NCBI GenBank assembly: GCA_964493515.1
Contig: CAZBNJ010000001.1
Span: 10,866 to 74,865, forward strand
From: an uncultured Oscillospiraceae bacterium
GTDB lineage: Bacteria; Bacillota; Clostridia; Oscillospirales; JAAYOS01
Length of the DNA stretch: 64,000 nt
Direction of reading: 5' to 3'
Shown: one piece after another, positions 18,001 to 42,600 of the stretch
Layout: every line of letters begins with the position of its first letter
Numbering within the stretch: the first letter of the stretch is position 1
Notes under the pieces: model-generated
What the model was told of the DNA's origin: nothing
Seen by the model: only the letters and a program-made list of their open reading frames with translations
Database searches by the model: none
Program-made: the position numbers and the translations under genes

Positions 18001-21000
18001 CGTCGGTCTGACGCGGGATGTAGGTCTGCCACTTGGTGCCGTTGTCCTTCAGCACCGCAGTGTGCGCGTAGTTCTCCGACGGATTTGCAACGAGCTTTGT
18101 CATCGTGGAGTCTATCGACACCGGCTCGAGCTTCAGCTCATAGTCGATGCGCACCAGCTCGTCGTTCGCGCCCTTGACGTACAGGTAGACCGCAAGCGGC
18201 TTGTCGGTCGCAGGCATCGTGCTGTACGCCTTGGTCCACGCGCCGGTGGTCTTGTTCTGCGTGTAGCCGAGCGCGGCGAGCCTCGTCGCGGTCGGAGCCG
18301 CGATGAGCGTCGCGTCGGTCTCGCCGATGAGGATGTACTCGACCGACGGCGCGGTCGGCGTGACGGTCAGCTCGAGCTTCTCGCCGTTCGCCTCGGGCAG
18401 CTTGATGTTGTACGCGCCCTTGAGCGTGCTCGCGCTCGGATTGACCTTCGTCGCGTAGTCGGTGATGTGATCGGTGTTCACGCCGCCGTTGTACTTCCAG
18501 TCGTACTCGCCCTTTATCGACTCTATCTCGATGGAGGTCGCGTCGTAGCGCATGAACACCAGGGCGTAGGCTATCGAGCCGTTCTCCGCCATGATGTAGA
18601 CCGGAACGTAGATGCCGTCCTCCAGCGCCGCGACGAGCTTGCGGCTGTCCTCGGTCTCGCCGCTGAGGTCGAACACCGGCGTCTGATACGCGGTGCGGGT
18701 TGCGGCTGCCCAGGTCTCGGCGGTCGGATAGCGCGAGCTGTCCATGACCGAGCTTGTGACCGCGCTGTCAAGCGACGTGTAGGCAAACCAGCTTCCGAGC
18801 ACGACCTTCGCGTAGTCGTTTACCGTGTCGACGCGCAGCGCGCGCTGAGTCTCGTTGCGCGAGACTATCGAGCGGTAGACGTCGAGCTTTGCGACCTGCT
18901 TCTCCTCCTTGACAAGCGGAGTCGCGGTGTCGGCGACGTTCGGCGTGCGTACCTTTATCGAGGTATCGCCCGACTGCGCGACGACATTCAGCTTGAAGTA
19001 GCCGACCTCGCCCGCCTCGTCAACAACGCGGATGTAGACCCAGCCGTAATCAAGCAGCGTCTCGCCTATGCGGATATTGTTGTCTTCGTCGTAGACATTG
19101 TTGCCCAACTCATCGGTCACCGGCAGCGTCGAGTCGGCGACGTTCAGGTTGGTGCTCAGCTGCCAGACGATGTTCTTGCTGCGCAGCTGTACCGCGTCGC
19201 CGGTTCCGCGCGTGTAGTACTGCGAATCGGTCGGCACCTTCATAGTGGCGGTGCTCGTCATCAGCTCCGCCTCCGCGTAGATGTCTATCGTCGGATTGCG
19301 CACCAGGTCGGGCGAGACCGCGACATAGTAGTGGCTGAACTTGCCGTTCGCGTCGTAGATCTCGTAGACGGTGTACTCGTTTACCGTGTCGTCGATTATC
19401 GCGCCGTCGGTGTCGCGGGTCGGGTTGTACTTCGACCAGACGCGCAGCGCCGCCAGCTTGGTGCCCGCCTTCGCATACTCAATGGTCAGGTCGTAGCGGA
19501 TGGCTGCGGTCGAAACGAGGTTGTTGCCCTCGTCGTCCTTGCCGTAGACAAGATCTATCTTCGACTCGACGACGACCTCGGTCGAGTTCACCGTCTCGCT
19601 CTTCGGCGTGAGCGGTATCGTCAGGTCGACGTAGGTCTGACCGTTCGCGGTGACAGCCTTGGTGTAGTTCGCCACGTTACCGTCCGCGCCGACGATGCCG
19701 ACCAGAGCCTCGGCGGTCTTGGTGTACAGACGCACGACCGCGCGCGGGGTCTCACCGGTCCTGAAGCTGTACAGCATACGGATGGTGTAGTGGCCCTCGA
19801 ACGGGTTGGTGTCGTCGTACTGCTCATAGGTGTACCAGACCGAGTCGTACTGCGGCCTGCCGTTTGCGTCGAGCACCGGGCTGCCGCTGTCGTCGGTCCT
19901 GAGCACCTCTATCTCGCGCTGGAGCGTGTTGGTGTTGGTGTCGCGGTCGTTGAGCGCCGCCTCGGTTATCTCGGGCGTTATCTTCTCGATGCGCACCTCG
20001 GGCACTCCCCAAGCGTAGAACATATTCTTGGTGGATATCGTGCCGTCCGCGTCCTTGCTCTCGTACTTCACCGGCGTGTGGTAGTTCTCCGGCGCGATGA
20101 GCACGAAGAAGCTGGTGTTCTGGCTCTCAGTGTCGAGCTTCAGCGACGAGTTGTTGTAGTTCGCGCCGGTCAGGCTCACCGTGCCGTCCGCGTCGATGGT
20201 GTAGTACAGCTCTGTTCCGAATCCGTAGAGCGGATCGGCGGTCGTTCCGAGCCAGCTTATGTCCTCGTTGTCCCCACGCAGAGCGGTCACCTTAGCGATG
20301 TACTCCGCCTCCGCCGCGCGGGCGTCGGCGAGCGTCGCGTAGACGCCGACTATCTTGGCGTTCGGGTCGAGCGTCGAGACAAACAGCTGCTTTGCCTCGG
20401 TGGTGTTCATGTTGTTTATGCGCACCGAGTAGTAGCCGCCCACGTTCACCGTGTTGTTGTACTCAGCCGGCAGCTTGTAGTCGTATTCGGTCGGGTCGGT
20501 GCCCGGGACCTCAAAGGTGCCGTCCACGCCGACTATCGGCTTCTGCTCGTCGTCGAAGTACACGTCCACGCCGTCGATGCGCGCGTCCGCGTCCTCACGG
20601 TAGATACGGACATACTCGTTATACACCCTCGTCGTGGTCGTGCCGGACGAGTCGGTGACCGTCGAGCTGACCTGGAACGGGATGTCGACATAGCTGTATG
20701 TCGCGGTGTGACGGAAGTAGTAGACCGAGCTGTCGTTGGTCGGCGGGTCGCCCGCGCCGGTCCAGTTGCGCAGCGTGAACTGTGCGGTCTGCTGACCCTG
20801 CTCGGCGACGTGTCCGCCGATGCTGACCATGCTCTTGCCGTCCGGCGCGATGACCGTGACGGTCACGTCCTCGGCGTCCGCCGCAACGGTGCCGATGTAG
20901 CGGTAGCGGGTGGAGGTCGAGTTGGTCGTCTCGTCGTTGACGTAGGTCTTGTCGAGCGGATTCTCGTAGTCCGCGTTCAGGTAGACGAAGTAGTCGAGGT

Positions 21001-21600
21001 CTATCGGCAGCACCTTGACGCTGTACTCCTTCTCGACATAGGTCGTGAAGCTCTCGTCGGTATACACGCGCACCCAGACGCTGAAGCTGTCCTCTCCCGC
21101 GCCCGCGTAGATGTTGTAATTGGTGCGGGTCGCCGAGCCAAGGAACTCGTTTGCCGAAGCGGCGTTGTTCATCGTACCTCTGTAACGGACATATCCAAGC
21201 TCGCCGAGCGTCGCCGCAGCGGTTATCTCCGCTATTCTGCCCGCCATGTCGTACATCTCCTTGTTTACGACAAGCAGCAGCTGCGAGTTGTCGCTTCCCG
21301 GCAGACGCGCCGCGCGGAACTCGGTGTAGGTCGGGTTGCCGTTCGAGTCGAGCACCGCGGTCTTGTTGCCGTCCTCGTCCAGCTCGTAGTTCTGGATCTT
21401 CGCGGTCAGGCTGAGCAGTCCGGTCGCGTAGTCCTTGGTGAACAGGTCGAGCGTGTAGCTGCTCGCGGTCACGCGCGTCTCGCCGTCGCCGACTATCGTG
21501 CGGTCGTTTATCGCGAGCGGGATGTCGCGGATGAAGTTCGCGCCAGCGGCGAGGGTGCGCGGCTGCTCGTCGAAGTAGGTGCGGTGGACAGCCGAGTTCG
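1..21600 (-). repeat. Long tandem array (several dozen units) of ~100-130-aa cadherin-like / Ig-like beta-sandwich modules, running off the window
   Basis: Module openings recur, of the type s-n-D-t-s-L-x-x-L-x-V: SNDTSLRVVN, NNDVTLKDLYF, NDDSLRRILVEG, SANTALTEVII, AAHIASVSVGG, AAALHTLGEVAVGG, SQTELKSLDIAG, DNDTTLVDNHV. Each is followed by ...Y-x-V-x-V... and closes with x-Y-x-(L/I/V)-x-(V/I)-x-R, for example TEYVVVVQ, YTLEVAKQ, YTLYIVRA. Short helical inserts sit at ~17.6, 14.7, 8.3 and 7.1 kb. Confidence 0.7.
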
Positions 21601-24600
21601 TCTCGATGACGCCCTCCTCCGCGTCCTCAACTATCGTCTCAAGCTCGGCGACATACGCGGTTATCATCGTCTCCGCGTCGTTGACGTTTGCGGTCCTTGC
21701 CGCGATGTAGACGTTCGCCGCCGAGGTAACGCTGCCGGTCGCGCCGACGAGCTTCTCAAGCTCGGTGTACGCAGTGCGGTCGATGAGCGCGCCGATCACC
21801 GCTGCATCCAGCGCGTCAACGGCGTTCTTGACCTCGCCAAGCGCGGTGGCGACGGCGGTCATGTTCTCTGCGGTAAGCGTCTCGTTCGGCTTGCCCGAAG
21901 CGTAGAGGTTGTCGGTAACGACGTCCTTCAGCGTCTTTGCCGCTGCGGCAAGCGCGTTTGCCGCGTCCTTGTGCGTCTTGCCGTAGCTCACGGCGAGCGC
22001 ATCCACCGCGGCGATGGCGTCTGCCACGTTCGCCGAGGTCAGCGTCTCGGAATAGTCGGCGTAGCGCTCGGACGCGATGTGCTTGAGCGCGTCCTCCTTG
22101 GCAGCGCCGAGCTTTCCGCTCGCGGTGACTATTGCGGATGCGATGTTGTTCTGCGTTATGTCGACGCCAATAAGCACGCCATACTTCGCAAACGTGCCGC
22201 GCACTCCGTCGGCGTACGCTATACGCATATCATAGTAGTTCTGAACGTCGGTCACGAGCGCGTTCCAGGTCGTGTTGGCGCTGCTCTCCAGCTTCGTGAC
22301 AAGCGCCTCGGTGCTCAATACCAGCTCCTTGCGCGCGGCGTCGTAGGCCTCTGCCGTCAGACCCTTCGGCTCGTAGCTCGCGAAGTTGCTGAACTTGACC
22401 CACTCGTCATGCGCGACGCTGTCCGTAGCGTCGATCATGGCGGCGTGCGCCTTGCCCGCGAGCTTATCCCATGCGTTCGTAATAGCGCGGTTGGTGTACT
22501 CGTTCAGGTACATATCCTGCGCCGTGTTAAGCTCGGCGACCATGTCCTTCGCGTAGTTCAGCGCGTCCAGCTTCGCCTGCGCCGCCTTCAGGTCGCGGCG
22601 AGCGTCGCTGAGCGTATCGCCCACGCGCTTTGCGGCGGTGATGTGGTCGGAGTTGACCGCAACGCCGTCCACCGTGACGGTGGCGCTCTGTGCCGCCGCC
22701 GCAGCGTAGATGTAGTACTGGGTCGCCGATGCCTCGTTGGTCGGCGGGATGATGCGGTAGTAGCGCGTGGCGGCCGCCCTTGTCGACGCCTCGCGCGTGC
22801 CGGCGACGTCCGCCGACAGCAGGCTTGCGGACAGGCTCTCGCCGAGCAGGACGGTCTCCTGCTCCTCGCTGCTCTCATCTGTGCCGATTATCATTGCCGC
22901 GACCTCGTCCGCGCCGAACATCGCCACGAGCGACGCGACCGTCTCCGCCGACGTCTCAAGCGCGCTGAACGTCACGACCTCGCTCTCGACAGACAGCGTG
23001 CTCGCGCTCGTCGTCTCGGTCTCGGTCGAAGTCCTGCGGTCGAGCGTGGTGTCAGCGGTGCCCGACGGCGTGTGCGTCCTGTCGGTCGGATAGCGCGCAG
23101 CCTCCCAAGCCACGGTCTCGCCGTCGATGACGGTGTTCTGCGGCATGGCGTGCGCGGTGTCTCGGTCAATGCCGACGTATATCGACTCTATGTCGGTGTT
23201 GTCCGGGCGCGCCACGATGACGAGCTTCTCCCAGGCGTCCGAGCCTTCCTCGTCGACGTAGCGGATGTAGACCTCTTCAAACGCGCTTACCGGCACGTTC
23301 TCGAAGCGGTAGTAGGTGAGCGTATCGTTGTTCTCGTTTATCTTGTCCGGAGCTATGACCAGCTGCTCGGTGCCGCCGTCGGCGTTGCCGTCAGCGTCAT
23401 AGGTCGCGATCTCGAGCGTGCCGACATACGCGCCGAAGCGTGCGTTCTCATCGGCGTAAGCGTCCGCGTAGTCATCCGCCTTCGAGCGCGCGATGTTCCT
23501 TGTCAGGTCGCTCTCGGCGGTGTCTATCGAATCGGCGCGGACGAGCGAGTATCCGGTAATTTCGCCGTCTGCGTTGCGCGTCGGCATCCACAGCTCGACG
23601 GTGTCGGTGTTGTAGTAGAGCACCACACGCAGCGTCGTGCTTTCGGTGCCGTTCGGCAGATACACGATGTGCGCGTTGCCGAGCGACTTCGAGAGATCCT
23701 TGACACGATCCGCCTCGTCCTTTGCGTCGTTTGCGGTCTTGACCTCGCTCGACAGCAGCGACGGGATGTTGTTCAGCGTCATGACAGCCTGCGCCGCCGT
23801 GTCGCCCGTGTTGGTCACATACTGATACTCCTCCGGCTGCATGTAGCCGCCCGCGACCAGATCAACGCTGCCGTTGCCGCCTATGCGGCTGTCGTCGGTG
23901 GTCTTGCCGTCGGCGAATATCTTCTGGCTGCGCAGCGCGCCGCGGTCAACGACCTCGACCCATGCGCTTACCGAAGTGCCGGTGCCCGGATCGGTCGCGA
24001 ATATCTGCGCAAGGCCGGTCGCGAGACCCGCGTTGAGCACCTTCGCGTCCGCGCGGTCCTCGAACGGATCGAGCGATATCTGGGTCTTGCTGAACTTCGG
24101 ACTGTCGCTGTCGCCCTGGACGGTGGTCCAGGTGTACTCGGGTATCGGCGCGTTCTGCTCGTTTGCAACGTAGAACTTGCCGATCTTAGCCTCGACGTTC
24201 TGCTTGGTGCCGGTCGGCAGCTTGATGTCCGACGGACGCATCCACTGCTCGTCGCCGAGCACCTGACGCGGTATCGTCGTGTTGTTCACGCCCTGCTGCG
24301 CGGTTCCGGTAACGGCAAGTGTGCCGTTGCCCAGCTGACCGTCGTTGTTGAAGCCGTAGGCGTAGAGCAGACCGAAGAAGTCGTTGTCCGGCAGCTCCTT
24401 CAGCTCCTCAGTCTCCTTGCCGTCCTCGTCCTTGACCTTCGGCCAGTCGGCGGTCGGCGCGGTGTAGGTCTCCTGCTCGGTCGGCAGGACAGCCGCGATG
24501 GTGCTGTACGCGCCGCCGGTCGCGACGGTCTGCGCCACGAGCGGTTCGTCGGTGACATGCCATCTATACTCGGTGGAGCCCTCAGCCAGCGGCCTCAGCT

Positions 24601-27600: not shown

Positions 27601-30600
27601 CGTCAAACACAGGCTTGCTGCCCGCCGGCTGACCCGCCGCGTTCCAAGCCTCGAGTCTGCTGAGGTAGTCGCGGTACGCGGCTGCGTACACGCCGTAGCC
27701 CTCGGTGACCGGAGTGCCGTCGTCGTTCTTATCGCTGTACCAGAACTGGTACAGCGAGTTGCCGGCGTAGTCCGCGTTCTTTATCGGCTCCGCCCAGTTG
27801 TCGTATGCCTCCGGACCGTCGAGCACGACAAGCTCGACATAGCGCTCCTTGCCCACCGTCGCGGTCTCGATCACCTTCAGGTAGTCGCGTCCGCTGCGGT
27901 AGTTGCCCTGCTCGTCAACGGTCGGCGAGCCGGCGCGCAGCTCGACAACGAGCACATCGAACTCGTATCCGCCGAGGCTGTACTTGTCGTAGCGCTTCTC
28001 CACGCTCGCGTTTGCAAACAGACTCATGTCCGCCGCGTTGTTGAAGAAGGTGTTGTAGTCGTAGTCGTACTGGATCTCGGCGCTCGACTCGTACATCGAG
28101 AACGCGCTGAACGACGTGTCGAGGAAGTAGTTCTCGCCGCTTATCAGATAGAGCGGGCCCGCGTCGACACGGCGCTTTGCGGTGTCAAGGAAGACGTAAT
28201 CGCCGTCGTAGGTCGTGCCCTTCTTTCTGGTGCCCATGTCGACAAACTGTCCGTCGACAAGCGCGTAGCGGTGGGTCAGGTTGCCGTCCGGGAAGTACAG
28301 CTCGTTTCCGGTCGCCTTCTTGTAGACATCGGCGTACTTCGCGACGAAGGTGTTGACCGGCGTGCGCTTGCCGATGTAGAGGAAGGTGCCCAGCTTGAGG
28401 CGTCCATCTTCGCCGACGATGTAGTTCGGCGCTATCGTGATTTCGAGCGCGCTGTCGCCGACCAGCGTCGCGGTCTCGGTGTCTGCGTTGCCACCGTTTG
28501 CGAGCTGACCATCGCTGTTGCGTCCCGATGCCCACAGCAGTCCGTAGGTGTCGAGATAGAATATCTGGTTGAATCCGGCAAACAGGTCGATATAGTCGCG
28601 GCGTATCGTGTTGATACGGTCGACCGACTCGACATACTGGTAGTCGCGCAGCTGTCCGCCTCCGCCGACGCCGAACTCGCCGTACTCGTTGAGACCCCAG
28701 ACGTAAGCCGCTGCCTGAGCCGAGTCGAGACCGACGTTGTTCGGGCCGAGCGCGTAGGACGAGTACATACCCGCCGCTATCGCGGTTATGTCCTCAAGGT
28801 ACTCACCGGCCTGATACTGGCTTATCGTCGAGCCGACGCGCACCAGCTGCGGCACGAGATACTCGATCTTCGCGTTGCGCTGGATGTAGTCGTCCTCGTT
28901 CGCGTACAGACCCATCTGGCCGTGATAGTTGCCGAGGTTGACCGTGCGGCTGCCGTCGGGCAGCTCCTGAGTCGCCCTGGTCGTGCTCACCGTCCACACG
29001 CGTCCCTCGCTGTCGAGCGCGACGAGGTGGTACGCGCCGGCGGCTATCTGCGTGATGGTTATGCGCGCGTCCTCCGACGATGCGTCCTCACCGACCAGAG
29101 CCGAGTCGAAGAACTCGAGCACGCTGGACTGGTCGACCTCACGGCGGCTGACGTCTATCGGCATTACCGTTCCGTCGGTGGTGAGGATGAAGCTGCCGCT
29201 TATCTCGGCGACATTTATCTTGGACGCGCCGCTGGTGGCTATCTGGTACGCCACCGAGCTTGCGCCGGTCATGTAGATGTAGTCCTCGGCGCCCGCGACC
29301 TTCTCGCCGTCCGCGCCTATCTGGTTTGCCGCGACGAACGTGTAGGTGCGATAGTCCTCGCCGCCCACCGGCACGCTGCTGACCGAGATCTCGAACGCGC
29401 CGCTGGTGTACTCGCGCAGCGCCACGCCGTCCTCGTTGCGGATGACGGTCGGCTCAAACGCCGCCTGCTTTATCGTTCCGTCCGCGCTCACGATGTTGCG
29501 GCGCATCAGGGTCGGCGCGGCAACTCCGGTGCGGTCGATGCCGGCAACGCCGACACCCGGCATGGAGGCGTTCACGCTGCCGATGCCAAGCTGGTTCTCG
29601 TCGTTGCGGCCCCATGCGTACACGCGGCCAAGCTCGGTTATCGCATAGCTGACGTGCGAGCCGGCGGCTATCTTCTGGACCGGATCCGGGTCAATCCAGT
29701 CGGCGTCGAACACGAACTCGAAGTTGCCGCTGTACTTGTACCACGTCGAGTAGGAGGTGACGGCTATCGGGTTGTTCCTCTCGTCGGTGCCGTAGCCGAG
29801 GAACTTCTCGTTGCCCGGCGTGAAGTATCCAAGCTCTATCGCGCGCTCGACCATGTGCGGGAATATGACCTGGTTCATCACCTCGTTGTCGGTACGGCCA
29901 AGCTCGCCGTAGTCGCCGCGGCCCCAGCTCCAGACGGTGCCGTCGGCCTTCAGCGCGAGGGTGTGGGTCTGACCCGCCGCGACCATCGGGGTGGCGCGCG
30001 AGTTGGTGTCGGACAGGACGCGCACCGTTACGAACGCGGTCGCGGTCAGTCCGGGCACCGAGATCTCCACCATCGTCTGTCCGAGGCGGTTGCCGGTGAT
30101 GTAGTAGTCCTTGTCTATGGTGTGCTGCTGCGGAGCCTTCGGGTTGGACGGGTTGTAGGTGTAGTCCGCGTACTCGCCGTTCTTGGAATACTCGTCCAGC
30201 CACCATTCGACATAGCGGTTGGTGTCGTACTCCGCCCTCTGCTCGCCCGCCGGCAGATAGTCGGTCGCGTGTGCCGCGTTGAACGCCTCAAAGGCGCTGG
30301 TCGCCTTGCGGTCAGCGTTTCCAAGCTCAACGAGCTGTGCCACCGCGTCCGCGACCGTCAGGTCCTCGGTCATGGTCGCGGAAGCCGTCGCGATGTTTAT
30401 CGCATAGGTCCTGCTCACCGCGCCGTTCGCGAGCATCTCTGCGATGTCGTCTGCGAGGTCGAGGTTGAAGTTCGGATAGGTCGAGTTGAACTCGGCAAGG
30501 TCAGCCTCGGCGACTGCCTTCGCGTCGAGGTAGAGACCGTAGGTGATGTTCAGCTCTTCCTTGGACACCAGCTCGCCGCTCTGAGCGCCGGTGCGGTCGG

Positions 30601-33600
30601 AGATGTACCACTGCTCGTCTATCGAGGTGGGATTCTCCGGTGTTCCGTACTCGGCGAGGTGGTCGTCGATGTTCTGATCCGCCTCGGCAAGAGCCGCGAT
30701 GAGCGTGAGATAGCGGTAGTAGCCGCCTGCGGTCGCCGCGATCTGCTCCCACTGAGCGTCGCTGATGCTCGGCGTCCAGGTCCAGGTCTTGGCCTCCACC
30801 ATCAGATCCGCCGCCGACGAGCCTTCAAGTATCGGAGCGATGACGTCGTCGTACAGCTTGTAGTTGTGCGTCAGGCTGCCGCTGCTCGTCAGCCACGCGC
30901 CGTCGCCGCTCATGTAGCTTGCCAGAGCCTGAACGGCTGCCGTGTACTCGAGATACGCGGTGTAGCACGGATCGGACGAGCCGACGGCGATGACGTTGCC
31001 CATATCGTCGAAGTGGTTGTTGTGTCCGTTGAACTCCGCGGTGGTGTTGAAGTTCTCGAGCGCCTCGTCGACAGCCTCGGTAAGCTCAAGATACTTCGCG
31101 TATTTCGTCTCGTAGCCGAGGTCGTAGAGGTAGCCCTCGTAGGACTGCGTGGCGCGGGTCGCCATGTAGTCGTCAAGCGTCTGCTGCGCGGCGTTGACCG
31201 CTGCCTGGAGCGCCTGCTGCTGGGTCACCTGCTCCTGCGTTATCGGCGGAGTCAGCGAATCCTTGAAGTTCTGGAGCGTCTCCTTGGCAAGGGTCAGCGC
31301 ATCGCGGAGCGCGAGCAGCTTGCCGTAGTAGACGGCGGTCGCGGCTATCGTGTTCGCGTCGGCGATTCCGCCGAATATCGCGCCCGAGCCGGTGAACATC
31401 TGCTTTGCGTAGTCGTCGCGCGCCTCAACTGCCGCCTCGACAGCCGCCTTCAGGCGACCGAACTCGGCAACGAGCGCCTGGCTCGCCGCAGCTTCCTTCA
31501 TGCTGAACATCGGGTGGTCGTACTCGAGCATGACCTCTGTGCCCGAGCTGTCCGCCATGCCCTTGTACACGCTCACGATGGTGGACAGGCTTCTCGGCGT
31601 CCAGCGGTTCGCGGCGTCTCCGAGGTCGCGCAGCAGCAGGTTGATGCCTGCCTCGAAGTCGACCTTCAGCGGAACGTCGGGCGGGAATATCTGCTCGGAG
31701 ATGTTTATCGTCTGTCCCTTGCTTATCGTGATGATGCTCGGCTCGACCGAGACCTGCTGCTGACCGACCATGACCAGCTTGTTCGAGTTCTGGCGGCTGA
31801 CATTGCCGAGCTGGCCGTACTCGTTCTGACCGGCGCTCCACATATAGCCGTCTTCCTTGATGCTTATCAGGTGTCCGTCGCCGGCGTTGACGCCGATGAC
31901 GCTGGTCGTGCCGCCGAGGTCGGTCGACTTGTACACGACCTTCTGCGGGTTGGAGTAGGTGGACAGCGGACGCTCGTAGGTGTCGCCCAGCGCGAGCTTG
32001 CCGCCCTCGTTCGAGCCCCAGGTGTACAGGTTGTACACGACAGCCGGCGTGGTGTGTACCTCGTCGCTGTATTCGGTGTGAGTCTCGGTGGTGGTGACTA
32101 TCCTGCTGCCGTCGCTGTAAGTGCGCTCGGTGGTGGTGACGACCGTGCGCTCGGTCACCTCGGTGGTCCAGGTGTGTTCGGTCGCGACGCTCTGTCCGTC
32201 TATCTCCTCGTTTACGATATAGACCTTATTCTCGATGCGGCGCTCGAGCTTGTTGCCAAGCGCATCCACGCCAACTATCTCGGTTATCGTGTACTCAACG
32301 TTCTTGCGCTCGACGTCCACCACGCCCTCGGCTATCATCACGCTCGGCAGCGTGAACTTTCTGACCGTGGTCACGCGGTTCATGTCGACCCAGCCGCCGG
32401 TCTCGAGCTGGCGGTGTCCGGTGACGGTGGATATCGTCGTCTCCACCTCGACGTCGTCGAAGTACTGATAGGTCTTGGTCGCGCCGCTGCGATACTCGTT
32501 GCGCTCGTCAATGACCTTTATGGTGTTCTCGGTGGTCTTGGACGTCTCGACTATCGTGCCGACGCCGTTGTTCTGCGCGGGATCCTTTTTCAGCGCAGCC
32601 TCGCTGTCCGCGAACTCCGCAAACTCCGGAATATCCGCGCGCACGAAGCTTATCGCCGACACATCCGCCGGGTTGTTCTCGGTCACGTTGGACACGACCT
32701 TGCCCTCGCCGTCGGTGGTCACGACGTTGGTCGTACCGCCAAGGCCGTAGCTTCTGACCACGCTGTAATTGGCAACATCCTCGGTCTCCTTGGCTATCGC
32801 GGCGCTGAATCGGCTGCCCGCCGCGACGCTCACGACGTCGGTGAACGGCCTCATTATCGCCTTGCCCGCCGCGTCGACGTTTCCGCTTGCGCGGAGCACC
32901 GGCGACATTATCGACAGGTTGCCCGCCTCCTCGTTGGTGCCGAGCTGTCCGGAGTAGTTGTCGCCGAGCGCGTACAGAACCGTCTTGGCCTTTTCGCCGG
33001 TGTACATCGACTTGACGTCGTTCTTCAGGTTCTTCTTTATCATCAGGATGTGCTGGCTGTCGATGTCTATCATCTCGCCCGCAATGTACTGGCTCTCCAC
33101 CTGGTACACATCCGAGTGACCCGCTATCGCGACGATGTTCTGGTTGTTGGTCGAGTCGCCCTGCTTGCGGATGTCCGGGCTGGTAGCCGAGGTCGGGAGC
33201 TGCCAGACGGTGCCCGAGCCCTTGAGCGCGTAGCCGTGCGCAACTTCGATGGCGCGCTGCAGCAGGCTCAGCGGGGTCGGCGTCGAGCCGTAGCCGTCGG
33301 TCTGCTTGACTGTGTAGTCGGTGGTGTCCAGCTCGACCATGAAGTTCTCGCCCGCGCCAAACGCGTACACCGTGCCGAGCGAAGTGAGAACGTAGCTCGA
33401 ACGGTCGAGCGCGTAGATGCTGACCGCCTTGACGCCATCCTCGGCAACGCCGTCGCCCAGGGTCGCGACCAGAGTCGGTGTGCGTATCTCCTTGATGTGG
33501 TCGTACTCCTCGCCAAGTCCGAGCTGGCCGAACTCGTTGGAGCCCCAAGCCCAGACCGCGCCCATGTTGTCCAGCGCGAGAGCGTGGTTCGCACCCGCGG

Positions 33601-36600
33601 CTATCTTCACGATATAGCGGTCGCTCATGCCCTGCTGCGACGCGAACGCCGCGTTGAAGTCGATGGTCGTCGGGTTGGTGTTGTAGCGGCGAGTCGTGCC
33701 GTCGCCCAGCTTGCCGTAGTATGTCACGCCGTCCTCGCCTATCCACGAGTTCGATCCCCAGGCGATGACCTCACCCGCGATGTTGAGCGCGAGGGTAAAG
33801 CCGTCGCCCGCCGCGACCTGCGGCAGCGCCACGAACTTCTGCTGGATGTACTTGTTGCCCTCTTCGTCGCCCTCCTCAATCGTGCCGACGCGGTCCTTGC
33901 CGAGCACGTCGACTATCGCGACGCCGCTGCGCGAGATGTTGTTCTGGCCGTCGGACGGCTCGTAGGTCACGATTATGCGCGACGTGCCGAAGCTGTCCTC
34001 CGAATCGCCGGTCAGCTCTATCTTAACATCCGAATAGGTGGATATCTTGTTGCGCAGGTTGTCCTCGGTGTAGCTGACGGTCTCCTTGCGCTTGCCGCCG
34101 TCCATGATGCCGCTGAGGTGGAAGATGTCCTCATCCAGCGACTCATAGGTCAGCTCAAGCGTCTTTTCCTCGTCGACCTGCTTGTCGACCGAGAAGGAGT
34201 ACATATACTTTGCCACGAACGAGCTGGACTCGATGCCCTCATCGAACTCCTCGTAGCCGGTCTTTATCTTCTCCTGGAAGTTGTAGTTCTCGACCTCGGT
34301 GCGGACGGTCTGCTCAAGCTGTCCGAGCGAGTCGCGGATCTCCTCGGTGAACACCTCGAATATCGCGATGTGCTCCTCGTCCACGACGGTCGGACGGCTC
34401 TGCGAGACCTCGCGCTTGTACGCCGAGTTCGGGTTCGCCGCGTCTACGGTCTCGGAGATGTGTCCGCTGTGCTTCAGATACTCGAAGTTGCCCAGCTGAC
34501 CGTACTCGTTGTTGCCCCAGGTGTAGACAATACCGTTCGAGTCGAACGACGCCGAGTGGTTGCCGCCCGCCGCGACGCCCTGGAGGTAGACTCCGTCGTC
34601 GAGCAGCGACACGACCTCGGTTCCGCTGATGAAGCCGTTCTCGTCGTACACGTCGTACGCCGCCTCGAATATCTCGATCTTGTCCGCACGGGTGGTATCG
34701 GTGTTTCTGGTCGTACCGCCCTTGTAATACTCGTTCGAGCCCCAAGTCCAGACCTGATAGGTACGGCTTGCGACCTCGGCAAGTCCTCTGCGGTAGTCGT
34801 ACTCGACGTCCATCGTGACCGCGAGCACCTGGACCTTGCCGCCGACGTAGCCGCCTATCGAGATGGAGGTCACGCCCTGGAGCGCGCTCTGGTTCGAGCC
34901 GGCGTCGGCGCCGACCTGTACCTTGACCGGGCGTATCGCGAAGTTGTGCGCCATCAGCGCCTTCTCAAGCTCGCCGGTGTAGTTCTTGGTCTCCTCCTCA
35001 TAGGCACGGCTGCCAAGCTCCTGCACCCAGACGTCGGCAGCGAGCTGGCTGGAGCTGTTGTCGCCCCACATATAGGCTTCCTTGCCCTCGGTGATTATCG
35101 CGAAGTTGTAGCCGCGTCCGATTATGCGGTTGATGTTGTCGATGGATTCGCTCTCGATCGGGCGGTTCGAGCTGTCCACCGTCTCCGCCGAGTAGTCCAC
35201 CTGCACCCAGTCGCCGACGCTGTCCACGCCGATGCCCTCGGCAAGCAGATGATCGGCGAGCATGTTGTTCGGCATCAGACCCGCGCCGAGTTCGCCGTGG
35301 GTGTTGGAGCCGACCGTCCAGACCGTGCCGTCGGTGAGCAGCACCGCGGTGGTGCCGACGGTGGCGGCGATGTCCATGACGTTGGATATCTTGATGTCCG
35401 GGCTGAAGCCGTTCATCTCGGTCGGACGATAGAGCGGGTTGCCGTCCGGCGTGTTGGTGGAAGAGACCACCGTCGCTATCTTGCGCGCGTTGCTCTCGTA
35501 GATGTTCGATGCCTCGATCTTCTCCTCAACGGTTATCGGAGTCTTGGGCACCCAGTTGCCCTCAAAGTCGTACTCGCCGTAGAGGGCAAGCTCGCCGTAC
35601 TCGGACACATAGCCGCGTCCAAGCTGGCCATACTGGTTGTCGCCCCACGCAAACACGCGTCCGTCGCGGGTCAGTGCAAGCGAGTAGTTCGAGCCGGCTG
35701 CGACAGTTATGAAGTCGAGCGTCGTGCCGTTTGCGTCGCGGATGTCCAGACGCACCGGATAGCTGGAGCGCGGCAGCACGTTCGGGTCGTAGCCGAGCTG
35801 ACCGTAGGTGTTGTCGCCCCACGCGTACAGCTGACCGCGGTTGTCAACGCCGAGCATATGGTTGTCTCCCGCCGCTATCTGGATTATGTTCTTGAACTCG
35901 CGGAGCTGCGGCTTGCTTGCCAGCGGCGCGGAGTTGTAGTACGCAAGCTGTATCGGCGTGGTTATCAGCGTCTGCGCGCTGCCGAAGCCGAGCTTGCCCG
36001 CGATGACTCTGTCGTCGCCGCCGTACAGCGGATTGTCGTACTCGTCGCGATAGGTGTTGTCGCCCCACGCCCAGACGGTACCGTCCTTCTTCAGCGCGGT
36101 GGAGGTGTTCTTTCCGAGCGTCATCTGCGGATAGGTAACGCCGTCGGTGACTATAACACGGGTGGACAGGATAACGCCGGTGGCGGTGTTCTCCGCAAGT
36201 ATGCGGGTCTCGCCCTCGCGGACAGCCGTGATGACCGCTGCGGTCGAGTCCTGTCTATCCGGCGCGACTTCGACTATCGAGTCGTCCAGCGACTTCCAGG
36301 TGTAGTTGTTCGCGCTCTGCGTCTGACCGTAGACCATGAGCGGGTTGCCGTCGTCGTCTATCTTCAGACGGCGCTGGGTCACGGTCTGGAGGTTCATGGT
36401 AACGAGCGATTCGAGGTCCGGCTGTCCGCCGCCGACCACGACCGGGTAGGACGTGCTCTGCGTCTGACCGTTGCCAAGCTCGCCGTACAGGTTCGAGCCC
36501 CAGGCGTATGTGATGCCCGTCTCGGCGTGACCGACGATGTGGCTGCGATCGTTCGAGCCGCTCGACTGTCCGAGGCGCACCATGCCGGTGAGATAGTCGT

Positions 36601-39600
36601 TTCCGATGTATCCACGGTAGACGAGATCGGGTATCTCCTGCGTATTGCTGTTGGAGCGGTTGCCGAGTATGCCGCCCGCGTTCTCCGCCGACTGGTTCGT
36701 GCCGTTCGAGTAGATGTGGCCGTCCTCGGTTATCATGGCGGTGTAGTGGTCACCCGCCCAGACACTGACGACGTTCGAGTTGATGCCGCTCGCCTCGAAG
36801 GTGTGCGTCGAAACAAGTCCGGTGATGAACTTGGCGGCGGAATCTATCGTCTCCGCCTTCTCGCGCATGAGCATGAGCATCGCCTGGATGTTTATGCCCT
36901 GCGAGTTCTTCTCGTAGGTGCTTACAACCTCGGTGAAGGTCTCCTTCGCGGTGGTAGCGCTGTCGTACGCGTTCTTGAACAGTCCGTTCGTTATCGCCGC
37001 CTTGACCTCCTCAAGCTGCTTGGTGGTGTTCGACAGCGACACACCGTGGCTGTCGTACTTCGCCATAGCGCTGCTGGCGGCGTTCTTGATGCTTTCCACG
37101 TCCGCCTTCGCCTGCGCCAGATGTGCGGCGAGGTAGATGCCGTAGTCGTCCTGCGGCTTCTTGTTGGTCGTCTCCGGGTCGGTAACGGTCAGGTAGACGC
37201 CGGTGAGCAGCGTCGCGTCCTCAATGGCGCGCTTCGCCACACGGACAGCCTTTTCGGCGTCCGCGACATTCTTCTTTAGCTGCGCTATCGCTGCGTCGCT
37301 CGCGTCCTCATCCGCCTCGTCGAGTGCCTTCAGCGCAGCCTCGAGCGCACGGTTCGCGTTGGTCAGGTCAAGCGCCAGACCGCCCTTGCCGTCAACATTT
37401 GCGCCGTTTATCCTGCGGTTCTCCTCGTTATAGGCGTTCACCAGCGCGACGCGCAGATCCTCCGCCGCCGCCGTGACAAGCACGCCTTCCGCCTTCTGTG
37501 CATCCTCCGCGCGCTTGACCGCCGCCTGCTTGCCCGCCTGCGAGCAGAGCATATTCGCAATGGTGCCGAGCGGGTTCGCGGTCATCTCATAGCTGCCGTC
37601 GCTGGACGGGACAGCCTCGTAGTTGCCGACTATCGTGACGCTCGACGTGCTCGACGGATCGACGACCGCCATGTACAGCGGACTCCACGCGTCGTGCTTG
37701 GTCTTGTAATCCTGCTCGAGTGCCGCTATCGCGTCGGCGATCTCGGTGTCGGTGGTCGTGTCGGTCACGGTGATGCCGATGATGTTGCCGAGCGCGGTCT
37801 GCGCCGCAGCGACAACCGCCGCCAGCTTCGCAAGCTCGGTCTCGTCCTTGCTGTCTAGTCCGGCGTAGTCGGTGTATGCCTTCTGCGCGTCGGCAAGCGT
37901 GGTCTGCGCGGCAAGCGCCGACTGCCACTTGGAGTACGCGTTGTATGCCGCAAGACCCGGCTCGATGGTCGGCGTGAACTGCGCCATCAGCGCCGTCTGG
38001 TATACGGTGGTGGTGTTCGGGTTCTTGCCGTCGGCGGTGGAGACGGTGCCGTCCTTGTTCGGCAGTCCGACGCCCTCGACGGTGGAGACGGTCTCCGCAG
38101 ACACGCCGTAGAAGGTCTTGAAGCGGTTCTGCCACAGCGTCGCGGCATCCTGAAGCGCCTTCTGCGAGTTCAGCAGGGTGGTGAGTATCTGCGCGAACAG
38201 CTCGTCGGTGTCCTCGTTCGGCTTGCTGCCGTGCATCAGCTCATATTCCTCGATGTACTTGGTGTACTTGTCGAAGTTCTCCTTGTAGACCTCGCCCGCG
38301 CTGTACGCAGCCGCACCGAGCGCCGCGATGTCCGACGTCTCCTTCTTTATGCGGTTCTGCGCCGCTGCAAGTGCGGTACGCGCCGCGGCAAGCGTGTTCT
38401 GCGCGGTGGTCGACTGTCCGCTGACGCTGACATACCTGTCATACAGCGACTTGAGCGTGGCCTTGTCGCCCGCCGCGTTGTACGCGAAGGTCTGATTCTC
38501 GTTTGCTGCGCCCTCGGCGACCGGATACTCGCCAAGCAGCTTCTGCCAATTCGCGTAGTGCTGCTGTGCGCTGGCAAGCAGTCCGGGCACGGTGTCGCCG
38601 TACTCGTCGACGACAGTCTCGTCGATTATCTGGTGATAGTTGACCAGAACCTCGGCGCGCAGCCGTTCAAGCTCTTTTATCTTGTCCTCGAGCGTCTCCT
38701 GCGCGACCTCTATCCAGTCGGGCTGCAGCTCGAACGAGGTCACGACCTCAGCCACGGTCATCTGCTCGGCAATCGCGCTTCTGATGTCCGCCTCGGTCGC
38801 GGCTATCTCCGCCGCAGTGAGACCCTGCTTTACGGCGGCGTCGGCCTTCCACGCGTCCAGCATATCCTGGCTGAACTTGACCGGATCCCTTCCGTCCATG
38901 GTCACACTCATCAGCGTGCGCAGCTCGCTTGCGATGTCCGCTTCTGTCGGCGGCTCCTGCTTTATCTCGGTGCCGAACTTCGCGCCCTCGGCGCGCAGCT
39001 CCCTGTACAGGGCGTTGTCCGCCTTGCTCGACGTAGTAGACGCCGCCGGATCGTAGCCCGCGCCCATGACGCTCATTATCGTGGTGCGCCACTTGCTCGT
39101 CACGTCGCGCTCCCAGTTCGCCGCGATGTCATTACGGCCGTAAGCGTATGCGACCTCTGCGGCCTCGAACAGAGCAGTCTTCAGCTCGTTCGACGTCACA
39201 TACATCGTGTTATAGGTGCTTGCCGCAGTCGCCGCGTTGTAGTTGTTCTTCTCGAGCCAGTCGCTCACCGCGTTGCTTGCCGTGAGCATCTCGGTGTAAG
39301 TCTCATACGCCGCCTGGAACTCCGCGGGCGCGTCGTCGGCCTTCATCTTGTCAACGACGTTCTCGTTCCACGCCTTCTCCTTGGTCGCAAAGTTCGCCGC
39401 AGCGTCGGCATAGACGAGCTGCACTATCACCGAGTAGTCGGTGCCGTCCGGCTTCTTGCCCGTCTCGATGCCCGGGAACGCGGCCTTTATCTGGTCAAGC
39501 TCGCTCTTCGCGGCGTTGTACTCGTTCCAGTATCCGGTCGCAAGCTCCATCGCCAGAGTTATCTGCGACAGACTGATCTCCCACGCCTCCTGCGCGGTGG

Positions 39601-42600
39601 AGGTCTTTTCGGTCAGCGCGGTATACTCGCCGTACAGCTTGTAGAACTCGATGCGCGACTTCTCCGCGTCGTGCCACTTTACAAGCAGCTCGTCGTAGCT
39701 CGCGTTCGCCTTTTCGATGAGCAGCTTCTTTGCGTAGGCATACGCGCCGTTATAGCGGTGCTGGAGCTGCTGCCAATCGGGATCGTAGCGGGTGGCGTAC
39801 TTGTGCACCGAGCTGTATCCCTCGTCGACCAGCTCGCTCAGACGGTCATACTCGACCGCCGCGAGGTAGCGATAGCGCACCGGAAGCGCGATATTGGTTA
39901 TGTTCGTCTCGTTCTCATTCTCGAACTTGAACGCGCCCGCCTCATATGCCGCGTCGAACGCTCCCGTGTAGGAGTCGACGATGCGCTCTGCGAGGTCGCC
40001 GAAGCCGAACTCGTCGAGTGCGTTCACGGCGGTCTCGATAGTCTTGTCGTCCGCGTCCGCGCCGATATTCTTGGTCGTCTCGAGTATCACGCCGAGGCCG
40101 CCGAGCAGTCCGTCCACATCCTCGCCGAGCATGTAGATGTGCGGCAGGATGCCGTCGGTGGTGACGAGCGTCTTGTTCTCGCCGTCACCGGTGACGCCGG
40201 TGATGCGTCCGTTCTCCTCGTACTCCATCGTCATGAGCACCATATGGTTGTTGCCCATGCCGAGTCCGACGACCGAGTGCATGTAGTCGCCGCCCTCGTG
40301 ATCGCCGTCGCCGTAAGTGTTCAGCATCGGCTGCGGGAAGTCCGCCATGCTGTTCATGCGGGTGTTGTCGCGACCGATGAGTCCGAGGTAGCTGCTGCCG
40401 GACACGAATACCAGTCCGCTGGCGGTCAGCACCGCCATGTTGTTGTCGGTTATGACAAGCTCCATCGCGCCCTGGATGCCGGGCACGCGTGCCGGATAGG
40501 AGTACTGGTTGGTGTTTGCGAACGCGCCGAGGCGGTGGTTGAGGTTCGAGTCGCCCCAGACATAGACTTCGCCGTTCTCGGTTATCGCGGCGGAGCTGGA
40601 GCCGGACGCGAACACGCGCAGTATGCGACCGGTGCTCTCGTCGCCGAGGTAGCCGACGCCGCCCGGTCCGGCGACCATCGTCGGCACCGCGTAGGCAGTG
40701 ACGTCGCTCGAGTCCGCTCCGCGCAGACCCAGGCTCGAGTAGCTGTTCAGACCCCATGCGTACACGCGGTCACCGACCGTCGCGAGCGCGTGATTGTCGC
40801 CCGCCGCGACCGACAGCACTCCGGTCAGGTTCTGACCGTTCGCCATCTTGACCGGGACGTAGACGGTGCTCTGCTTCTCGCTGAGGTTCAGCTGACCGAG
40901 CTGTCCGTTCTGGTTCGAGCCCCAGGCATACGCACGGCCCTGGCTGTCCACAGCCACGCTGAACGCGAGACCCGCAGCGACCTGCGGCGCGACGCCCAGC
41001 CTCGAGTTGCGCTTGTACACGCGCGTCGATTCGGTCCTGGTCTCGACCAGCTTATACAGCTTGCCGCCCGCCTGAGCCTTGTCCTCGTCGGTCACATGGG
41101 TGACGATGCGGCTGACGGTGGTCTTGAATTCGGTGATAACGCCGTCTGCGGCACGCGAGTATCTGGTGGTGCTCGACTCGTTCGCGGCGCTCGACTCGGG
41201 ATCGTCGCCGGGCTGGAGATCCTCGTCGCCGATGTAGCTGGTCGCGGTCGTCGGCTTGCTCGAGGTCGATATCTCGTCGAAGAAGTATCCGGCGTAAGGC
41301 AGGACCTCAACGTCCAGATAGGTCTGGAGATACAGGTCGTCGAACTCCTTCTCGTACACGACTATCTTTGCCGTGCCGACGCCGACATAGGTCATCTCGC
41401 CGTACTCGTCCACCGTCACGACCGTCTCGTCGGTCGAGGCAAACAGGTACTGCGCCTTCTCGTTCATGTCAAGCGGCAGCTCATAGTAGGCGTTGAACTG
41501 CTTGATGTACGGATTTATGCGCCAGCCGGAGACTATGTTCGTCGCGCCGGTGTACGGCAGGACGTAGACATAGCGGTTGGCGACAACGCCGTCAAGCTCG
41601 TTTGCGAGCGCCAGCTCATAGTTGTAGGTGTATCCGGGCAGGTCGCGGTAGGTCGCGTCCTCGCCGTCGCGCTTGTGGAGCACGTCCGCGCCGATGACCA
41701 GGTTGCCGAGCTGACCGTAGTCGCTCTGACCCCATGTCAGGAAGTCGCCGTTGGTCAGGACCGCGGCGCTGATGCCGTCGTCGCGCGACTCGCTCGAGCC
41801 TATTGAGGCTATGCGCAGGCCCTCGCCGGTGTCCACCGACACGACGCCGCGCAGGATGCTCATTTCGGTCTCCATCATGCCCGGATCGATCACTTCGCCG
41901 GTTATCGGGTCGACGGTGTCGTCGACCTCCAGTGCCTCGCCCGCACGGATGAAGCTGAAGTAGCTGCGGGTATCCGACGAGCCGTCGCCAAGCTGTCCGG
42001 TCGTTCCCACGCCGGTCGAGACCGCGAATGTCTCGGTGGTGCCGTCGGCAAGCAGGAACCTGACCAGCGCGACGGTGGTGGTGCCGCCCATCGGCGTGAC
42101 GCTGAGTATCTTCGCGCCGTCGAGGTTGAAGCTCTTGCCCATTCCCTCGGTCTCGCTTATCGTCTTTGCGAGGTTGGAGAAGTAGCTGGTGCTCGTCAGA
42201 TTGTTGTTTTCGACGTAGTTCATCGCCACATCGTAGTTCTCCGCCGCCGGAGTGCCCATGCCGAGAGCACCGGTGGTTGCCTTACCGGTGTGGTTGAGTG
42301 TCGTATCGAATGTGCTGAGGTCGCCGCCGCGCGCGTAGATGTCGCCGTCCTCGGTGCTCGCGAATATCACGCCGGTCGTGCCCTCGATGTCGGTTATGCG
42401 GCTGTCGATTCCGGTGCTGGCGTTCTCCATCGAGTAGGTCTTTTCGGCGGCGTTCCAGGTCATCAGATGGCCGTAGAGGTCAAGCAGGTAGCTCGACGAG
42501 CCGTTCACCGCCGCGACATCGAACACGTCGGCTATCGGCAGCATCTTCGGCGTGTAGTTCGGATCCGCAAGCGAGCTGCCGGTGCCGAACTGCATCGACG

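Follow-up and report, generated by a model that had tools for sequence, protein, structure and literature searches.

An RCC1-type giant gene and the segment within it

We analysed a 64,000-base stretch of DNA (hereafter the window) from an uncultured Oscillospiraceae bacterium (assembly GCA_964493515.1, contig CAZBNJ010000001.1), focusing on a segment of ~1,095 residues that lies between two propeller blocks of the giant protein encoded there. In a six-frame translation, minus-strand frame 0 contains no stop codon over all 64,000 bases, which gives a reading frame of 21,333 codons (positions 2-64000) that is open at both ends. Pfam matches to RCC1 (PF00415), RCC1_2 (PF13540) and the RCC1-like domain WD40_RLD (PF25390) occur on both sides of the segment, between residues ~60 and 13,250, with E-values down to 0. 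An RCC1-blade hidden Markov model (HMM) trained on the window protein identified 70 canonical blades up to residue 12,950, and the frame is also similar to that of a close relative from another assembly (L007, described below). Unless stated otherwise, all features given here are on the minus strand and residues are numbered along the window protein.

The only published account of the Oscillospiraceae RCC1-type giant genes (West-Roberts et al., bioRxiv 10.1101/2023.11.21.568195) reports them from gut metagenomes of humans, mice and rabbits. Their proteins reportedly have no membrane anchors, are predicted to be extracellular, and are depicted as one single domain repeating over the entire length (bioRxiv 10.1101/2023.11.21.568195). 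The window gene belongs to this class. It is a giant single open reading frame (ORF), its 21,333 stop-free codons being a minimum and well over 10,000, and its protein carries the long arrays of RCC1 propeller repeats that are typical of the class. It also agrees with the class in taxon and gut source, with colinear orthologues in Oscillospiraceae and Clostridiales metagenome-assembled genomes (MAGs), including genomes of a mouse-gut catalogue. A preprint from 2026 about gut megaplasmids that encode giant proteins was treated as unrelated, as RCC1 is absent from its text.

An earlier note on this DNA, made from the sequence alone, had singled out positions 36860-40110 (residues ~7964-9047) as a stretch without propeller motifs. 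We refine this to positions 36806-40090, corresponding to residues ~7971-9065, with the edges set by motifs that are conserved among orthologues. On the upstream side, the last blade of the preceding propeller ends with the motif HIYMLGEDVDGLLGGLG (residues 7954-7970, positions 40091-40141), which is present in the window protein and in all seven relatives that we found (L001-L007). On the downstream side, the first blade of the next propeller carries a VSVWAG motif (residues 9078-9083, positions 36752-36769), a single homologous site in the window protein, L001 and L003-L007; its counterpart in L002 is the variant ATIYAG. The self-trained HMM detected no RCC1 blade between residues 7814 and 9044, and the segment has no Pfam match. 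The module is thus recognised by its lack of blades and of family matches, together with its composition, its periodicity, the secondary structure assigned to its AlphaFold2 models and its gene-like codon usage.

Several parts can be distinguished within the module. A block of ~51 residues near its N-terminus (residues 7981-8031, positions 39908-40060) is found only in the window and L007 and is a gap in L001-L006 in both of our alignments (A1 and A2, see below). It overlaps a conserved N-terminal cap (residues 8018-8103, positions 39692-39949), which begins with LPVRYRYLAAVEYDRLSELVDEGY, has at least 88% identity to L007 in 25-residue windows, is the one part of the module for which BLASTP detects similarity to distant orthologues (to L001, see below) and has columns of P, Y, Y, E, R and L that are invariant in alignment A2. 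The peptide quoted in the earlier note, which begins with WHDAEKSRIEFYK, matches exactly from codon 8109 onward (residues 8109-8175, positions 39476-39676). Further along, a conserved and mostly non-helical island (residues 8787-8832, positions 37505-37642), beginning with VTIVGNYEAVPSSDGSYEMTANPLGTIANMLCSQ, is again at least 88% identical to L007 and contains C8819, the sole cysteine of the module; around it, the DSSP assignment of the AlphaFold2 model leaves 42 residues outside helices, among them two tiny strands. The module closes with a conserved C-terminal cap just before the next propeller (residues 9035-9065, positions 36806-36898), which has the same minimum identity to L007 and is alignable with L003-L006.

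The segment is predominantly helical in character

The composition of the segment differs from that of its surroundings. In 200-residue bins, residues 8001-9000 contain 6-8% Gly plus Pro and 39-48% Ala, Glu, Lys, Leu and Gln combined, compared with 11-17% and 22-31%, respectively, in the neighbouring propeller bins, which agrees with the original description of the segment as rich in Ala, Glu, Lys and Leu and poor in Gly and Pro. Over the whole segment Gly makes up 4.75% and Pro 2.1% (~75 Gly or Pro in 1,095 residues), and Ser is low too. Because its sequence entropy equals that of the flanks (3.59 bits versus 3.63-3.69), the segment is not a low-complexity region.

Chou-Fasman helix propensity is 1.05-1.10 in the segment versus 0.95-1.0 in the flanks, and the power of hydrophobicity at a period of 3.5-3.6 residues is 1.4-1.46x versus ~0.9-1.0. 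Overall, the hydrophobic periodicity of the segment lies at 3.4-3.8 residues. All seven orthologous segments likewise show alpha-band periodicity (1.4-2.0x, versus ~1.0 in propeller flanks). Aromatic residues (Tyr, Trp and Phe) account for 93 of the 1,095 residues (8.5%) and, relative to 2,000 shuffles, pairs of them are over-represented at lags of 3, 4 and 7 residues (z = 2.0, 2.8 and 2.5) and under-represented at lags of 1, 5 and 12. The excess at lags 3, 4 and 7 is the pattern expected of aromatic residues placed along one face of a helix, and it bears out the aromatic spacing that had been pointed out at the start. An AlphaFold2 model of 1,100 residues, predicted from the single sequence, is 71% helix by DSSP, with 35 helices of 4-59 residues (mostly 12-40) and strands limited to the two tiny ones mentioned above. 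A separate run on a 261-residue tile (residues 8806-9066) gave ~85% helix, with helix borders agreeing with those of the whole-segment run. As both models are of low confidence, we used them for secondary structure alone. Propensity, periodicity and helix content all uphold the helical call of the earlier note, and the mostly beta outcome that would have contradicted it was not seen.

The same data bear on whether the segment lacks a stable fold and is a linker that is intrinsically disordered or becomes helical only transiently. Such a linker would account for the very low per-residue confidence (predicted local distance difference test, pLDDT) of both AlphaFold2 runs, and for the rapid sequence divergence and plastic length described below. 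However, low pLDDT is expected of single-sequence prediction, the entropy resembles that of the folded flanks, and the aromatic residues (8.5%) are spaced as on a helix face. Furthermore, an amphipathic periodicity of 3.6 residues recurs in all orthologues, Pro, Gly and Ser are low, and the segment is under purifying selection. We consider a disordered linker unlikely.

It could also be proposed that the segment serves oligomerisation, as a long parallel coiled coil that holds several copies of the giant protein together. Its helicity, its Ala, Glu, Lys and Leu content and a few stretches of 30-50 residues, the highest-scoring heptad runs of the segment, which exceed shuffled sequences, are in line with this. 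Using a crude heptad score of our own over 28-residue windows (neither COILS nor MARCOIL), however, we found that the threshold was passed by 7% of segment windows; the corresponding figures are 89% in tropomyosin and 1.4% in shuffled sequences. The longest run free of Pro and Gly is 62 residues, one or the other occurring every ~14 residues on average, and the modelled helices are separated by intervening loops. An oligomerising coiled coil is therefore very unlikely. A canonical long coiled coil in general was rejected, as there is no continuous heptad pattern over ~100 residues and helix breakers are frequent. The presence of ~35 helices, mostly of 12-40 residues and joined by short loops, points to packed hairpins or bundles and not to one long coiled coil. 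This is the arrangement suspected in the earlier note, which favoured bundles over a simple coiled coil; the heptad scores agree with it, and the helices may well be packed in this way.

The check for internal repeats that had been suggested was negative: self-BLASTP of the segment gave no internal high-scoring segment pair (HSP) at E < 0.1, comparison of 120-residue tiles of the window and L007 sequences with hhalign reached a maximum probability of 5.5%, and a spectrin-type periodicity of ~106 residues was not seen. On the first two of these results, a repeat-built segment was rejected. No transmembrane-like stretch was found in the segment, the maximum 19-residue Kyte-Doolittle mean being 1.66, in an Ala-rich stretch. 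A membrane-active or pore-forming toxin hairpin was also rejected, as no paired hydrophobic helix was found in the segment.

Sequence searches connected the module to no known family. Against Pfam, the segment and four tiles of it gave only noise at E <= 10, with FIVAR, GA, DUF1542 and spectrin profiles not among the matches, and the seven orthologous segments likewise gave only noise, with no FIVAR/GA, DUF1542 or spectrin match at E <= 0.1. The segment had no match among PDB chains at E <= 10, a profile of the seven orthologous segments gave noise against the PDB (best E = 0.02), and NCBIfam returned a single sub-threshold match (14.7 bits versus a cut-off of 210). Matches to helical surface proteins were non-significant (E = 0.02-0.8). 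Neither the segment nor the seven-sequence alignment A2 had a match at E <= 1e-3 in a word-indexed protein database, an exhaustive phmmer search of 1.84 billion representatives with the segment gave none at the same threshold, and the first scans of genome and metagenome contigs with the segment itself returned no relative. The statement in the earlier note that no family was recognised thus still stands after searches of Pfam, NCBIfam, PDB sequences and profiles and two very large protein collections.

The result from the word-indexed database should be read with its coverage in mind. The 120 listed matches of another query, the downstream propeller, were all shorter than 1,460 residues, and known relatives on gene calls of 4,789 and 7,991 residues were missed. 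As these long relatives were not returned, the lack of a homologue there probably does not extend to giant proteins, and pieces of giant proteins that appear as orphans in that search do so partly because of the database. A Foldseek search of the PDB with the low-confidence tile model had no match at E <= 0.001. Its best-ranked matches, helical bundles of a generic or designed kind with E > 0.1 (talin R4, for example, at E = 1.7), are uninterpretable. The module matches no curated family and has itself not been described previously, although the class of its host gene has.

Three kinds of known helical proteins are worth comparing with the module. Rods of the Ebh type, such as the FIVAR-GA repeats of Staphylococcus aureus Ebh, consist of recognisable units repeated in tandem. 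The module resembles S. aureus Ebh in being a long Ala-rich, all-helical region of a giant Firmicute protein that is predicted to be extracellular, and in being a plausible extended stalk; unlike Ebh, it has no internal repeats and no FIVAR, GA or DUF1542 match even at the most permissive threshold. It shares with spectrin and talin rods the chaining of helices tens of residues long through short loops and, in its proposed role, use as a connector, but lacks the periodicity of such rods, any repeat signal and a Pfam match. Long coiled-coil stalks (M protein, tropomyosin-like) are similarly helical and rich in Ala, Glu, Lys and Leu, whereas the heptad pattern of the module is weak and often broken by its frequent Gly and Pro residues.

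Orthologous segments and their evolution

Using the downstream propeller (residues 9064-9900) as a query, we retrieved two ENA metagenome proteins with 46% and 41% identity, and the contigs that encode them (L001 and L002) are colinear with the window protein. A search of genomes and metagenomes with an alignment of the junction between propeller and helix (A1) yielded four MAG loci (L003-L006), from the Oscillospiraceae genomes MGBC124762, MGBC108936 and MAG3936 and from one uncultured Clostridiales bin. It also yielded the close relative L007, a contig of 279.7 kb (ERZ808040 NODE-6) that aligns with window residues 4682-11481 in one HSP with 77% identity over 7,026 alignment columns. L003-L007 are each stop-free over ~20 kb, and the identity of the relatives to the window protein ranges from 35% to 77%. 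All seven have a Gly-poor (5%), Pro-poor (2%) and Ala-rich (14-17%) segment at the same junction.

The giant ORF is interrupted in the two remaining loci. L002 has an in-frame stop at nt 9971-9973, and L001 is broken at ~nt 10000, where its gene calls split, with stops in the upstream frame from nt 9998 and a coverage of 1.6x. Assembly errors are the probable cause of these breaks, which would have divided the giant gene into several gene calls and in this way let fragments of it into the protein database. The shorter connector of L002 (nt 9000-9500, plus strand) contains, by eye, ~55-residue repeats of the form A[RK]xACIDxGIxxPDxPTxxELA...

The orthologues also decide whether the segment is an artefact, that is, a misassembly, a foreign insertion or a fortuitously open non-coding stretch. 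The abrupt change in composition could be taken as a sign of this, but nothing else could. The reading frame continues through the segment, its GC content at third codon positions (GC3) is 0.844 versus 0.865-0.867 in the flanks, and it does not depart from the rest of the gene in synonymous codon choice or in GC at each of the three codon positions; on these grounds a foreign insertion was rejected. L007, an independent assembly, has a colinear segment with 56-75% identity and a nonsynonymous to synonymous rate ratio (dN/dS) of 0.44, and at six further orthologous loci the same junction is occupied by an equivalent segment. The probability of an artefact, already refuted by codon usage and by the L007 segment with its dN/dS, is next to nil.

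The length of the module varies greatly among the orthologues. From the HLYM motif to VSVWAG, the distance is 1,124 residues in the window protein, 1,157 in L007 and 684, 673, 673, 670, 670 and ~540 in the others, so the module of the window lineage has ~450 extra residues. In the distant orthologues only the ends of the module are alignable. The N-terminal cap has 37% identity to L001 over 67 residues (BLASTP, E = 3e-8), and tblastn HSPs resume at residues 8963-9059, with restarts at 8963 and 9008 for L003 and L004. The islands conserved between the window and L007 are residues 8018-8103, 8150-8180, 8415-8444, 8787-8832 and 9035-9078.

In all 15 pairs compared, conservation is weaker in the module than in either of the flanking propeller stretches of 700 residues (for example, identities of 68% versus 82/86%, 36% versus 61/70% and 22-24% versus 35/49%). 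Across three independent close pairs, dN/dS by the Nei-Gojobori method is 0.44 (window and L007), 0.56 and 0.19 in the module, compared with 0.31/0.21, 0.24/0.13 and 0.11/0.09 in the flanks. The module is therefore under relaxed but clearly purifying selection, with dN/dS always below 1.

This pattern could alternatively mean that the module is functional and surface-exposed, an interaction or variable module that meets a host, mucus or another partner, or that is subject to immune or phage pressure. Its fast evolution would then be adaptation and not a lack of constraint, by the same logic as in the helical-bundle surface proteins of pathogens. A dN/dS 1.4-4x above that of the flanks in the three pairs, the internal conserved islands and sharp motifs, which argue for a defined fold, and the expansion in the window lineage are consistent with this; the rate, islands and motifs fit it no less well than they do the connector proposed below. 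On the other hand, mean dN/dS is well below 1 everywhere, no known binding family was matched and nothing points to a ligand, and the matches to helical surface proteins noted above are noise. An interaction module is the main rival to the connector, though we think it doubtful.

The proposed connector and the architecture of the protein

We interpret the segment as a connector or stalk between propeller blocks that is native, folded, all-alpha and fast-evolving, and give this reading a probability of about 0.55. The searches matched no catalytic or known binding family, which, like the lack of a transmembrane-like stretch, gives no hint of a different function. Its conserved ends would probably dock onto the adjacent propellers, while the interior would be free to change in sequence and to lengthen or shorten, provided that helicity is kept. 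The role of such a connector would most likely be mechanical, as a stalk, spacer or hinge that sets the distance between the two propeller blocks and their relative freedom, with any binding function carried by the propellers and not by the helices.

Several observations weigh against this reading. AlphaFold2 supplied the helix content that the earlier note had sought from structure prediction, but did not establish a fold: pLDDT is 39.5 for the whole segment and 46.7 for the tile, with predicted template modelling scores (pTM) of 0.24 and 0.34. The packing of the helices into bundles is tentative, and the segment may be partly disordered. Between the window and L007, the islands at residues 8150-8180, 8415-8444 and 8787-8832 are as conserved as the propellers, and the 650-residue versions of the module (L003-L006) share the motifs HPDW, LWxALLxQIQ, GLPxPKDYxxPTY, GETMVDM and SKWxSGDLYK. 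A featureless spacer would need neither islands nor sharp motifs, which hint at a specific fold or partner. The faster rate of evolution is equally expected of an exposed interaction surface. Lastly, the extracellular location follows from the class prediction of one preprint, and the termini of the gene lie outside the window.

A further possibility is that the module has an all-alpha fold not seen before and performs a specific task, such as assembling giant proteins into a surface lattice by self-association or recognising a structure of the host or of a partner. In this case the functional site would be the conserved non-helical island at residues 8787-8832 around the lone cysteine, and the doubling of its length in this lineage would be adaptive, altering the reach or valency of the module. 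We regard this as improbable.

The published picture of the class, a single domain that repeats over the entire length, is not quite true of the window protein. Its propeller array is interrupted by the conserved all-alpha module of ~1,100 residues and by a second helix-like stretch at residues 10722-11303, and ~8,000 residues past the last RCC1 blade (residues ~13,250-21,333, positions 2-24253) have no Pfam match at E <= 0.01. The interruption that the earlier note called unexpected is real; it is, however, a conserved architecture of the gene family, and the protein has at least two more helix-like stretches. The one at residues 10722-11303 (positions 30092-31837) is Gly-poor and Ala-rich with an alpha-band periodicity of 1.34x, as is another at residues ~13400-14200 (positions 21401-23803) with a periodicity of 1.24x. 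At the former, ~420 residues separate the alignable blocks in the window compared with ~92 in L006, which suggests that the window lineage has expanded its helical inserts generally. From residue 14,200 onward the hydrophobic periodicity is of the beta type (1.28x in the 2.0-2.3-residue band).

A few bacterial Ig-like (Big_2) domains, among them those at residues ~6834-6871 and ~7517-7556, were found in Pfam, so what had been taken as a propeller chain really consists of propeller and Ig units. Residues ~9200-9290 (positions ~36100-36400), YTWKSLDDSIVEV...AVITAVREGETRILAENTATG, resemble a further Ig-like domain by eye. The window protein as a whole contains only 10 cysteines in 21,333 residues (0.05%) and is strongly acidic (2,818 Asp plus Glu versus 1,600 Lys plus Arg). 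The plus strand also has long ORFs, such as that at positions 3797-37279 (11,160 codons), whose translations are Arg-, Val- and Leu-rich nonsense. These are antisense shadows of the minus-strand gene, which has a GC3 of 0.865; the antisense frame has just 10 stops in the 64 kb. ORF lists that omit ORFs running off the ends of the window display these shadows only.

The RCC1-type giant genes of gut Oscillospiraceae rank with the largest genes known in bacteria and are without experimental characterisation. That a giant surface protein contains a helical spacer without annotation is by itself little surprise, and the data support no mechanism beyond that of a connector. Nevertheless, the presence of a family-less all-alpha module at a fixed junction in every relative examined suggests that the protein is made of propeller blocks separated by helical connectors. 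Such a block organisation is the first thing needed for modelling the shape of these proteins, for choosing fragments to express and for addressing their folding and display. The segment also supplies a concrete sequence family, with conserved caps and a plastic helical core, for alignment-based structure prediction.

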